Positions 5,739-7,052 of a DNA stretch of 7,431 nucleotides are shown piece by piece. The notes beneath the pieces were generated by a model. That model saw only the letters and a list, made by a program, of their open reading frames with translations. It was not told where the DNA came from and did no database searches. The position numbers were made by a program, and so were the translations under genes. The stretch is from Escherichia coli (GTDB lineage Bacteria; Pseudomonadota; Gammaproteobacteria; Enterobacterales; Enterobacteriaceae). The stretch lies in assembly GCF_003334305.1 (NCBI RefSeq), contig NZ_QOWS01000047.1; one strand, written 5' to 3'. How positions within the stretch are numbered: the first letter of the stretch is position 1; the number at the start of each line of letters is the position of its first letter.

Positions 5739-5999
5739 ATGCTTGAACATTTTGGAGCCGAAGCTTCGGTATTAGACATGACGATTATTGTTCGTTCAAA
5801 TCCGAGTAAAGCCGCTATTCTTGAAGAGTTTTTACATGGTACACAAGAGAAACTAGGAATAGCTGAAAAATTAGGACGTTATGGACTAGGGAGTGCAGAA
5901 ACGCACGTTAAGGATTTCATGATAAGACACAAAAAAATGCTTGGGTTATCTGATGAGGATGTAGCAATACTCAAAATATTGAAAGACAAGGGGTTGTGA
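5739..5999 (+). CDS. Hypothetical protein (86 aa as called); probably the distal part of the Rhs C-terminal toxin domain, since the same frame is open upstream to 5643 and overlaps the frame-1 Rhs tail
   Basis: Frame 3 is open from 5643 to TGA at 5997-5999, with an in-frame ATG at 5739. The stop overlaps the next start as TGATG (5997-6001), typical of toxin/immunity coupling. The region is AT-rich. No recognisable catalytic motif. Confidence 0.5.
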   Translation: MLEHFGAEASVLDMTIIVRSNPSKAAILEEFLHGTQEKLGIAEKLGRYGLGSAETHVKDFMIRHKKMLGLSDEDVAILKILKDKGL

Positions 6000-6286
6000 T
6001 GAATATAATTCTGCCGATAAAAGATATATTTATTATTGCGGGAAACATAGTTTTTAGCGTTTTATACAATGAACATCTTGAGTTCCCATGCCGCTGCCAA
6101 TTACTATCTTCAAATTCTGAAGTTATGCAAGAGTTATATATTGAAAAAGAGTTATTTATTAAACGCACTACGGAAAATGATTGTCGTGCTTTAGTGTTAA
6201 GAGGAACATTGGAATACTTATTTGATGAAATTATTGCTGGCGAGTGGTCTTTGGCCTTATTACAAAAAGAAATAAAAAAAGATTAA
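5999..6286 (+). CDS. Hypothetical protein, candidate immunity protein (5' segment; reading frame interrupted at an A7 tract, 6274-6280)
   Basis: ATG at 5999 (the ORF track uses the GTG at 5996) with AAGGGG 6 nt upstream. Start overlaps the upstream stop (TGATG). Frame 2 ends at TAA 6284-6286, immediately after the A7 run. Confidence 0.6.
   Translation: MNIILPIKDIFIIAGNIVFSVLYNEHLEFPCRCQLLSSNSEVMQELYIEKELFIKRTTENDCRALVLRGTLEYLFDEIIAGEWSLALLQKEIKKD
6274..6280 (+). repeat. A7 homopolymer preceded by T (TAAAAAAA) at the frame break of the first downstream gene
   Basis: Seen directly: aat aaaaaaa gat. Frame 2 stops 4 nt later; frame 3 opens at the TAA formed by T plus the first two A. Confidence 0.9.
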
Positions 6287-6572
6287 TCCAATATGTAGAA
6301 CGGGACAATACCCATCTTTTAACAATGAACTTCGTAATTTTTATCTTAGAAATAATGCTACATTATATGAGGTATATCATGAGGTAAAAAATGTTAACAA
6401 GGGAGTTGGCCTGGTGGGAGATAATGGTATCGTCCTGGTAATTAGAAGTTCCAATTCCAAAAATACACTTGAGGAATTTCATGAATTCTTTGGAAACTTC
6501 AAACCTAATAATTCAACAGCTCGAGTTGAAGTGATTGATCAATCCGTTTTAGAACCTTTTTGGAGATTTTAA
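6276..6572 (+). CDS. Probable 3' segment of the same gene as 5999-6286, in frame 3 (98 codons open, no plausible start codon of its own)
   Basis: Frame 3 opens right after a TAA at 6273-6275 and runs to TAA at 6570-6572 in AT-rich DNA. It translates to a soluble-looking sequence (KKINPICRTGQYPSFNNELRNFYLRNNATLYEVYHEVKNVNKGVGLVGDNGIVLVIRSSNSKNTLEEFHEFFGNFKPNNSTARVEVIDQSVLEPFWRF). Its stop lies 4 nt before the next ATG (6577). A one-base change in the A7 tract fuses it to 5999-6286, giving about 190 aa. Confidence 0.55.
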   Translation, partial: KKINPICRTGQYPSFNNELRNFYLRNNATLYEVYHEVKNVNKGVGLVGDNGIVLVIRSSNSKNTLEEFHEFFGNFKPNNSTARVEVIDQSVLEPFWRF

Positions 6573-6576
6573 AAAT

Positions 6577-6774
6577 ATGATCACCAAATCAAGTATACTC
6601 ATAGAGTATAAAGATAAAAGTAAACTAACCGATAGTATTTATAAGTTTGTAAATGCTCTAGACATTGACTTTTCGATATTAAAATATGACTACTTTGATG
6701 TAAATGAGTATAAAAAAACATTACTTATGACACATCTTTTATTGACAAAGATGCAGAATATATTGAATTACTAG
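6577..6774 (+). CDS. Hypothetical protein (5' segment; reading frame interrupted at an A7 tract, 6712-6718)
   Basis: ATG at 6577 with GGAG about 13 nt upstream. The last ~18 codons of the as-read frame-1 ORF (after the A7 tract) look like out-of-frame read-through. Confidence 0.6.
   Translation: MITKSSILIEYKDKSKLTDSIYKFVNALDIDFSILKYDYFDVNEYKKTLLMTHLLLTKMQNILNY
6712..6718 (+). repeat. A7 homopolymer preceded by T (TAAAAAAA) at the frame break of the second downstream gene
   Basis: Seen directly: agta taaaaaaa cat. Frame 3 opens at the TAA formed by T plus the first two A. Confidence 0.9.
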
Positions 6775-7052
6775 CGAAGATTGATTTTTCTTATGAAGTT
6801 GATTTCGGCACATCAACAACATCGATTGAAAGCAAGTATCTTCCATCTCTAACTGATTTCATCGCTCAATCACTATCACAACAATTAAATTGTGACATAA
6901 TAACCAGCTTTAAACCATTAAGTGGAGATGAGTTTTGCCCAATAACATATTTTTCAAAAGGTAAAGAAGTTATCAATTTTACGACATTTAATTCAAATTG
7001 TTGGGATGGGGTATGCTGGGTAAAAAAAAGGAGGCAAACAAATATCCGCTAA
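6714..7052 (+). CDS. Probable 3' segment of the same gene as 6577-6774, in frame 3 (112 codons open, no start codon)
   Basis: Frame 3 opens right after a TAA at 6711-6713 and runs to TAA at 7050-7052, translating NITYDTSFIDKDAEYIELLAKIDFSYEVDFGTSTTSIESKYLPSLTDFIAQSLSQQLNCDIITSFKPLSGDEFCPITYFSKGKEVINFTTFNSNCWDGVCWVKKRRQTNIR. One extra A in the A7 tract fuses it to 6577 onward, giving about 158 aa. Confidence 0.55.
   Translation, partial: KNITYDTSFIDKDAEYIELLAKIDFSYEVDFGTSTTSIESKYLPSLTDFIAQSLSQQLNCDIITSFKPLSGDEFCPITYFSKGKEVINFTTFNSNCWDGVCWVKKRRQTNIR

Follow-up and report, generated by a model that had tools for sequence, protein, structure and literature searches.

The interval examined (positions 5999–7052) lies behind the Rhs toxin gene of the window, a term used here for the whole 7,431-nt stretch of Escherichia coli DNA that was analysed. 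The Rhs core end motif (PxxxxDPxGL), which precedes the variable toxin tip, was recognized in DPLGLQGGEQTYRYVPNPLRWIDPLGL at 5519–5600, a match to TIGR03696 (Rhs_assc_core), and the toxin-1 domain sits after it. The intact toxin 2 present in L015 and L023 is likewise placed after a DPLGL motif. The region is best read as the trailing part of a T6SS-linked E. coli Rhs element, which comprises vgrG, a DcrB-like chaperone gene and PAAR-Rhs. From 5′ to 3′, the proposed order is toxin 1, gene A, a junction of ~26 nt, a zincin relic joined to the tail of a toxin 2, and gene B (Table 1). In the source genomes, nfrB/nfrA are found downstream of the ISEc1 transposase gene (RefSeq annotation).

Table 1. 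Features at the Rhs locus, in window coordinates.
Feature	Position	Strand	Basis or remark
Rhs core C-terminal end (DPLGL motifs, frame 1 to 5706) and toxin-1 domain (frame 3, 5643–5999)	5311–5999	+	Frames
Gene A, intact 95-aa gene of immunity type (RefSeq WP_001021476 / WP_001021473)	5999–6286	+	Overlaps toxin-1 stop
A7 tract in the final codons of gene A (AAA AAA GAT TAA), not a frameshift site	6274–6280	+	A7 common
Junction spacer, toxin-1/gene A module to older relics	6287–6312	.	Zincin similarity begins at 6313
Zincin-like metallopeptidase toxin relic, 24 codons (LRNFYLRNNATLYEVYHEV), cut inside HExxH	6313–6385	+	EDL933 identity
3′ tail of toxin 2, 61 codons and stop	6386–6572	+	In frame with zincin relic; ~90 N-terminal domain residues gone
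Gene B, a pseudogene here; intact form 158 aa (WP_000629024.1), putative orphan immunity gene of toxin 2	6577–7052	+	Frame 1 to frame 3
A7 tract, gene B frameshift site; intact allele A8 (AAA AAA AAT)	6712–6718	+	Tract comparison
A8 tract within the final 10 codons of gene B, strain-variable (A7, A8, A9)	7022–7029	+	Strain comparison
Start of ISEc1 transposase gene, ISAs1 family (H-repeat)	7251–7431	+	Bounds Rhs element; RefSeq annotation of identical records

Reading frames of the interval

A sequence-only reading had built two split genes from four frames, all of which were present: frame 2 from 5999 to 6286 (95 aa), frame 3 from 6276 to 6572 (98 codons), frame 1 from 6577 to 6774 (65 aa) and frame 3 from 6714 to 7052 (112 codons). 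The T preceding each of the two A7 tracts was confirmed, as were the TGATG at 5997–6001, shared by the toxin-1 stop and the gene A start, and the 4-nt gap between the TAA at 6570–6572 and the gene B ATG at 6577. The two start-less frames do open exactly at TAAAAAAA, although this is partly trivial, as the T and the first two As form the nearest upstream TAA in frame 3. Among 5000 mononucleotide shuffles of 5999–7052, 1.1% contained an open run of at least 98 codons in some forward frame and 0.26% one of at least 112 codons, roughly as had been estimated for runs of ~100 codons. Both long start-less frames are former coding sequence, as that reading had supposed. Scans of gene A, the 6276–6572 frame, gene B and both toxins against Pfam, NCBIfam and PADLOC gave nothing significant.

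Toxin 1 and gene A

The current C-terminal toxin of the Rhs gene, toxin 1, is knocked out by the loss of a single nucleotide. One G is missing from a G-run (G4 at 5650–5653), where toxin-1 homologs have DDLMGVEPASPELL spanning the break. A second lesion, an absent C near position 5328, was found in this window. In RefSeq, the Rhs gene bears the label "frameshifted" or "internal stop". The toxin-1 domain is widespread and strongly conserved.

Directly after toxin-1 homologs, counterparts of gene A were found with sizes of 96 aa in L024 and 93 aa in L026, without any extension. Both aligned with gene A from end to end at a weak 27–28% identity, with E-values of 7e-7 and 6e-5 that are pairwise and not database-wide. 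Because the partners of the toxin-1 homologs have these sizes and align over their full length, gene A is taken as complete at 95 aa, and its reading as a tract-interrupted gene is wrong. The tract was A7 in 38 of 40 rows sampled evenly from 546 E. coli genomes and in seven loci read directly, and the E. coli variants of natural appearance all terminated at ...KEIKKD. With a genuine stop codon located 4 nt beyond the tract, the proposal that each gene is interrupted at its A tract stands for gene B and falls for gene A. A phmmer search of the full library of 1.84 billion representative proteins with the 95 aa of gene A gave 10 matches, each of them a variant from E. coli, a product of a frameshift or a chimera, and no independent homolog. 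Gene A had no Pfam or NCBIfam match, and its informative counterparts were recognized through their genomic neighbourhood.

Several longer versions of gene A were set aside. P0027 (192 aa) does not qualify as an intact gene A: it holds an internal double frameshift, and in its source assembly all long genes in the vicinity are fragmented, with Rhs and nfrB shattered. P0028 (149 aa), P0029 (137 aa) and P0034 (116 aa) were rejected as evidence of a truncated gene A. Their extensions beyond KEIKKD diverge at low-complexity AAAAAAAGATT and enter 28%-GC DNA coding for a Gram-positive-type lipoprotein, on metagenome contigs at ~2x coverage, and we judge these three to be probable assembly chimeras.

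The 98-codon frame downstream of gene A

No homology was found for the spacer at 6287–6312. Beyond it, the frame ending at 6572 is, by sequence comparison, a join of two toxin relics and not the second half of gene A. Over the segment 6313–6385, 82% of the nucleotides are shared with the EDL933 gene for WP_000127242.1, annotated as a [quoted passage not shown]. The relic reads YHEV|KNVNKG where EDL933 reads YHEVIHAKQF, and it has neither an intact HExxH motif nor the downstream domain. Nucleotide identity to the intact toxin-2 module begins exactly at 6386, ~90 residues into the toxin domain. The start-less tail that follows is 75–77% identical in amino acids to the toxin C-termini lying directly before B homologs. 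In strain 4621 and L015, where its counterpart closes the primary Rhs tip, the identity is 98%. At this same locus in strain 4621, the primary Rhs gene ends in an intact toxin-2/B pair.

The frame-3 segment was also found without gene A in MB22, strain 4621, Cronobacter and Superficieibacter, where it is an Rhs toxin C-terminus. In MB22, an apparently intact Rhs protein of 1619 aa reads through the zincin relic and the toxin 2 tail, so that a translated chimeric C-terminus does exist in some strains. At the present locus, the relics (6313–6572) are presumably untranslated.

The sequence-only reading had joined 5999–6286 and 6276–6572 into a single gene A of ~190 aa. On this model a 1-nt insertion in the A tract would have split gene A, and both genes, of accessory or immunity function, would be frameshifted. 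In its favour, the frame-3 run is long and genuinely derives from coding sequence, and the rare A6 allele of C311 gives an ORF of exactly 190 aa, annotated as WP_085456883.1; the 192-aa version is P0027. However, since the frame-3 part is made of relics of unrelated toxin genes that also occur without the 5′ part, the 190-aa reconstruction is wrong. Its breakpoints at 6313 and 6386 are sharp, the putative immunity partners of toxin-1 homologs reach only 93–96 aa, and A7 prevails in the genomes sampled. P0027 comes from the shattered assembly, and the fusion in C311 is artificial, this genome having lost one A in both A7 tracts at once, in a manner that resembles homopolymer under-calling or random slippage. 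For gene A, these findings together amount to the kind of result that the sequence-only reading had itself named in advance as speaking against it. A search of related genomes for intact single ORFs, which it had proposed, recovered them for gene B; for gene A only the fusions in the error-ridden P0027 and in C311 with its A6 were seen. A gene A of ~190 aa is thus already largely refuted and most improbable.

Gene B and its A tracts

The 26 homologs of gene B included proteins of 151–158 aa that span 95–100% of the reconstruction, across the junction, and full-length ones were present in E. coli, Enterobacter, Kosakonia, Cronobacter and Superficieibacter. Where the window shows A7, the intact allele of E. 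coli shows A8. Because intact homologs span the junction and the intact allele has A8, gene B is one gene of 158 aa whose frame the loss of one nucleotide (A8 to A7) has broken, and in this respect the split at the A tract had been correctly recognized. The junction peptide over 6712–6718 would be EYKKNITYDTSFIDK. Only seven substitutions separate gene B from the intact allele; it is still of full length, with its start codon preserved and a GGAG in front.

The B homologs follow toxin 2, beginning 3–4 nt after its stop in four lineages, as gene A overlaps the toxin-1 stop and its 93–96-aa counterparts follow toxin-1 homologs. From position and fold, gene A is the putative cognate immunity gene of toxin 1 and gene B the putative orphan immunity gene of toxin 2. 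This agrees with a possibility raised from the letters of the stretch, namely that the Rhs element carries here a cognate immunity gene together with an orphan immunity or accessory gene.

All the frame breaks lie in or beside homopolymers, and some assemblies are clearly affected (G5, 13 gaps in 1.5 kb; GCA_019431085). That the breaks are sequencing or assembly errors in a genome with intact genes is nevertheless scarcely credible. The gene B tract region was identical over the surrounding 80 nt in 482 of 568 independent complete E. coli genomes, the interval is common to 548 genomes at ≥99% identity, and metagenome contigs share the toxin-1 break. The A8 genomes (n = 7) carry further linked substitutions together with the whole toxin.

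The A7 tract of gene B could alternatively be a functional switch, in which transcriptional slippage, −1 ribosomal frameshifting or heritable phase variation (A7 to A8) would allow full-length B, the putative orphan immunity protein, to be made at a low or switchable level. A-runs are known to slip, and runs of ~9 or more slip efficiently in E. coli. The good preservation of gene B would fit such a switch, as would the varying length of the tracts (A6, A7 or A8 at 6712 and A7 to A9 at 7022). However, the homologs are single ORFs and the run is absent in other genera (Kosakonia, Superficieibacter and Cronobacter, with AAA AAG CGT, AAG GAA TTT or AAA AAT TAT), which points to a family without a programmed shift. 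A8 was seen only alongside an intact toxin, save in the error-ridden assembly L006, and the truncated lineage variants go in the wrong direction: PKF8, ETEC1732 and C311 have A6 at the 6712 tract, giving an N-terminally truncated ORF of 115–120 aa. The zero-frame codons UAU AAA AAA ACA do not form a canonical X XXY YYZ heptamer, and A7 is below the length at which slippage becomes efficient. Toxin 1 and the Rhs core moreover carry ordinary inactivating indels, in line with a general decay. We consider a switch at this tract unlikely. There is a very slim chance that the mutable 6712 run and the run at 7022–7029 form a contingency switch making orphan immunity phase-variable in the Rhs array; sub-populations or a fraction of the transcripts would then regain immunity against toxin-2-armed E. 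coli.

Origin and spread of the arrangement

The interval 5999–7052 is ordinary debris behind an E. coli Rhs toxin gene, and not two split genes. Its content is one intact small gene of immunity type, two older toxin-gene pieces and a second immunity-type gene with one A lost. We propose that successive C-terminal displacement events assembled the interval and that decay came afterwards, an order of events that we infer. Decayed remnants of Rhs toxin–immunity modules built by displacement, with gene B as an orphan, are in our opinion very probably the correct explanation overall.

The toxin 2 tail is devoid of Rhs core and core-proximal (DPxGL) sequence. It begins within the toxin domain and is joined to a piece of a third toxin, so that core recombination could not reload it. 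The decayed arrangement was present in ~550 complete E. coli genomes (548 with at least 80% of the interval at ≥99% identity), compared to an intact toxin-2/B pair in only seven. The locus is also present in ATCC 8739 and E. coli B, both A7 strains, whereas MS 69-1, like strain 4621, has an intact toxin-2 C-terminal domain. Among the matches listed, the 18 truncated copies of the module all shared one starting breakpoint, and each was 1 nt shorter.

For annotation, the 98-codon frame is no part of gene A, and a 190-aa protein should not be assembled from the two. The RefSeq "hypothetical proteins" of 115–120 aa over 6704–7052 and the C311 fusion ORF are by-products of changes in homopolymer length. 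Gene B and its homologs constitute an unannotated putative immunity family (no Pfam or NCBIfam), and gene A with its 93–96-aa partners another one, tied to a widespread toxin domain. The locus offers a clean worked example of Rhs array decay, with intra-domain breakpoints, in-frame splicing of relics and homopolymer indels.

Comparison with known systems

Toxin 2 is likely a CdiA-CT-like nuclease of the PD-(D/E)xK fold, as judged from modelling. The fold similarity of the toxin 2 and B models to the toxin and immunity chains of PDB 4g6v suggests a distant kinship with the CdiA-CT/CdiI pair of Burkholderia pseudomallei, with delivery through Rhs. The toxin-2 model was built on three sequences; a single model of the five reached a confident pLDDT (78), the others staying at 44–54. 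In the B model, the predicted fold is a common ferredoxin-like alpha/beta sandwich for which CdiI ranked fourth; a Foldseek search of this model against the PDB gave no match with E ≤ 0.001, with TM-scores of ~0.35. The toxin 2 sequence shows a D...D-x-K-like pattern (MADFTIDGIQVDTK) that may hold the catalytic residues of the predicted nuclease. Sequence similarity between the two pairs is not significant: Pfam CdiA_C (PF18451) gave a weak hint with toxin 2 (E 0.14–0.21, below significance), and PDB sequence searches with the B family profile and with toxin 2 returned no match. The Burkholderia pair further differs by its CdiA/CdiB delivery, compared to Rhs/T6SS here, and by a CdiI of 103 aa compared to the 158 aa of gene B.

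In E. coli O157:H7 EDL933, WP_000127242.1 is encoded at the same locus, beside nfrB, as an orphan Rhs fragment, and LRN.YLR.NATLYEVYHEV is found in both. Only 24 codons are left here, and the sequence exits the toxin after HEV, so that the second His of HExxH is gone.

C-terminal displacement and orphan rhs-CT/rhsI modules were described by Jackson et al. 2009 (PMC2935791), orphan toxin fragments without initiation signals and followed by immunity genes by Poole et al. 2011 (PMC3150448), and Rhs orphan modules also by Koskiniemi et al. 2014 (PMC3967940). The present locus shares with these systems a main Rhs gene with a variable toxin tip demarcated by DPxGL, a small AT-rich immunity gene directly 3′ of the toxin, and start-less toxin fragments with an immunity gene behind each of them. 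It also shares a module that is the primary tip elsewhere (strain 4621) and an array bounded by an IS/H-repeat. It differs in that the orphan fragment, without Rhs core or DPxGL, is truncated within the toxin domain and joined to a piece of a third toxin, and in that frameshifts affect both the toxin now at the tip and the putative orphan immunity gene.

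Organization of the Rhs Tail

The whole window matches E. coli strain A7 (NZ_CP028767) at 100% identity, and 80% or more of its length occurs in 419 complete genomes. In the source genomes, nfrB and nfrA come next after ISEc1. The feature spanning positions 5999–7052 is an ordinary, decayed Rhs tail, and all the coordinates assigned to it by the sequence-only reading were correct on re-check. A TGATG overlap joins the start of gene A to the upstream frame, and a 4-nt gap precedes the ATG at position 6577. The two start-less frame-3 runs had been considered real coding sequence, a sound inference since open runs of at least 98 and 112 codons occurred in only 1.1% and 0.26% of the interval shuffles, respectively. 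The frames "open" at the T-A7 sites because, in frame 3, the T and two As make up the closest TAA upstream.

Features of the window and their positions
Feature	Position	Remark
T6SS vgrG, 3' end		first element in the window
DcrB-related (DUF1795-type) chaperone gene		between vgrG and PAAR-Rhs
PAAR-Rhs gene	1190 onward	
Low-GC tail	from about 5600	about 30% GC vs about 60% before
Frame-2 ORF (gene A)	5999–6286	
Frame-3 open run	6276–6572	98 codons
Frame-1 ORF (gene B)	6577–6774	
Frame-3 open run (gene B)	6714–7052	112 codons
A7 tracts	6274–6280 and 6712–6718	
ISAs1-family ISEc1 (H-repeat) transposase, start	7251	

The Frame Break in Gene B

Gene B had been proposed to be one gene broken at its A tract, and its homologs bear this out. 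The reconstructed 158-aa protein retrieved 26 of them, and those of 151–158 aa cover 95–100% of the reconstruction, crossing the junction uninterrupted (...DYFDVNEYKK-NI...). Full-length homologs were found in E. coli (P0001, 97% identity), Enterobacter asburiae, Kosakonia, Cronobacter sakazakii and Superficieibacter. Where the intact E. coli allele has TAT AAA AAA AAT ATT (A8), the window has TATAAAAAAACATT (A7), indicating that one A was lost. The run is not kept in other genera (AAA AAG CGT, AAG GAA TTT, AAA AAT TAT), which argues for a mutation in a slippage-prone run and not a programmed shift. The 80 nt around the tract are identical in 482 of the 568 complete E. coli genomes having the region. 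A minority of genomes (PKF8, ETEC1732, C311) have a tract one base shorter, A6, which leaves gene B unrestored and yields a 115–120-aa ORF from the ATG at 6704, called "hypothetical protein" in RefSeq.

A third A-run, in gene B's final codons (7022–7029), is A8 in the window and A7, A8 or A9 across complete genomes. A change in its length alters the C-terminal ~10 residues. In the error-prone G5 assembly the run is even shorter, and assembly error may explain part of the variation.

Relics of Two Toxin Genes at 6276–6572

The sequence-only reading was wrong in extending gene A to a 190-aa protein including the 6276–6572 frame, which is a mosaic of toxin genes. Positions 6313–6385 match, at 82% identity, a gene that about 1100 genomes carry under the annotation [quoted passage not shown]. 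In EDL933 this toxin (WP_000127242.1) reads ...LRKNATLYEVYHEVIHAKQF; the window reads ...LRNNATLYEVYHEV, then diverges inside the HExxH motif. Beginning exactly at 6386, the identity is 98.2% to an intact E. coli module (loci L015 and L016) in which a full Rhs C-terminal toxin, toxin 2, ends with ...NVNKGVGQVGDNGIVLVIRNSNSKNTLEEFHEFFGNFKPNNSTVRVEVIDQSVLEPFWRF and a stop, followed by 4 nt and intact gene B. At 75–77% amino-acid identity, the same tail closes Rhs toxins directly upstream of the gene B homologs in Cronobacter and Superficieibacter, and a decayed trace of it is still upstream of the homolog in Kosakonia. In strain 4621, the Rhs gene at this same locus has the intact toxin-2/B pair as its primary tip, and in strain MB22 a 1619-aa Rhs ORF runs through the zincin part into the toxin-2 tail. 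The 6276–6572 frame thus belongs to toxin genes and not to gene A.

The MB22 ORF (WP_162721642.1; L003, 1401–6260, its 3' end corresponding to 6330–6572 of the window) is apparently intact and annotated as an Rhs protein in RefSeq. Its tip, presumably non-toxic, is chimeric: the zincin-like toxin, up to the HEV of HExxH, continues in frame into the final 61 residues of toxin 2. The downstream gene B still has the A7 tract.

Gene A

Gene A, by comparison with its counterparts, is a complete gene of 95 aa. On two distant metagenomic contigs, the gene right after the homolog of toxin 1, the Rhs toxin upstream of gene A, encodes 96 and 93 aa. These proteins align end to end with gene A (27–28% identity, pairwise E 7e-7 and 6e-5) and are 39% identical to one another. 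They have in common F.(L/I)A.G..V close to the N-terminus and (S/A)G.W close to the C-terminus. Searched against the full library, the 95-aa protein returned E. coli variants, frameshift products and chimeras, and no other homologs; the natural-looking variants all end with ...KEIKKD. The tract is A7 in 38 of 40 rows sampled evenly from 546 genomes.

Only two full-length "fusions" were observed. The 192-aa P0027 was rejected, having an internal double frameshift and coming from an assembly with Rhs and nfrB shattered into many ORFs, as was the C311 allele, in which one A is missing from both A7 tracts together. In two metagenome contigs from different samples (ERZ504794, L017 1020–1981; ERZ894065, L018 231–1042), gene A is joined at AAAAAAAGATT to identical 28%-GC DNA encoding a Gram-positive-style lipoprotein (MKKKIFPLAIVATLLVGCSSS...). 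The resulting 149-aa "gene A" is probably an assembly chimera that recurs at low coverage, odd as the common junction is.

Many homopolymer deletions affect the locus in GCA_019431085.1 (L006), the assembly with shattered Rhs and nfrB, and in E. coli G5 (L028, NZ_CP060065; 13 gaps in 1.5 kb). Such errors led to spurious ORFs now in protein databases (P0027, WP_187002585.1).

Toxin 1 and Decay of the Rhs Core

Homologs of the toxin-1 domain (frame 3, 5643–5999) are numerous, matching 98% of its length at 55–70% identity, and occur in Bordetella, Agaribacter, Xanthomonas and Myxococcales, among others. The family is widespread and strongly conserved, with the motifs EEFLHGTQ and SAETHVKDFMIRH, and has no Pfam family; one homolog sits after a Hint domain. 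In the window, toxin 1 is broken as well: where the homologs read ...DDLMGVEPASPELL..., frame 1 gives ...SDLMG and frame 3 gives VEKAAPELL. This fits a one-G loss from ATGGGGTTGAG (G4 at 5650–5653) in E. coli, and owing to the frame break the RefSeq records examined all list a separate 86-aa "hypothetical protein" (WP_000889443.1). The window strain also lacks one C near 5328 (CCGGGCAGACC vs CCG GGC CAG ACC in MB22, L017 and EDL933), a second, apparently strain-restricted inactivating indel. It shifts the Rhs core frame before the DPLGL motif. The indels point to general decay across the neighbourhood of the Rhs tail.

Putative Functions and History of the Locus

Genes A and B and both toxins had no significant match in Pfam, NCBIfam or PADLOC. 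Pfam CdiA_C aligns weakly to toxin 2 (E 0.14–0.21). Two independent hits, one per chain of a single complex, point to a CdiA-CT/CdiI-like nuclease-immunity pair as the best guess at the function of toxin 2 and gene B. The general idea of an immunity plus an orphan immunity gene was right. The two unannotated candidate immunity families and the putative CdiA-CT/CdiI-like fold are mildly new, and nothing else is. In Kosakonia (L007, L008, L009; 5400–13000) and Superficieibacter (L010; 5300–13300), the gene B homologs lie in long arrays of small genes including Barstar, Cys_rich_CPCC, SUKH-3 and WapI-like immunity families, which appear to be poly-immunity islands.

We propose that this Rhs gene formerly had the toxin-2/B module as its tip, an arrangement kept in 7 of 5426 complete genomes. 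Later events would have joined the final 61 codons of toxin 2 in frame to a zincin-toxin fragment, and the toxin-1/gene-A module would then have been inserted upstream. Gene B, its toxin gone, would have turned into an orphan immunity gene whose A8 run lost an A. The 18 truncated toxin-2/B copies among the matches listed all start at the same breakpoint and are each 1 nt shorter, which argues for a single ancestral event inherited by about 550–570 complete genomes. The pattern matches the C-terminal displacement described in PMC2935791 and the orphan toxin-fragment/immunity modules, with toxin pieces devoid of initiation signals, of PMC3150448.
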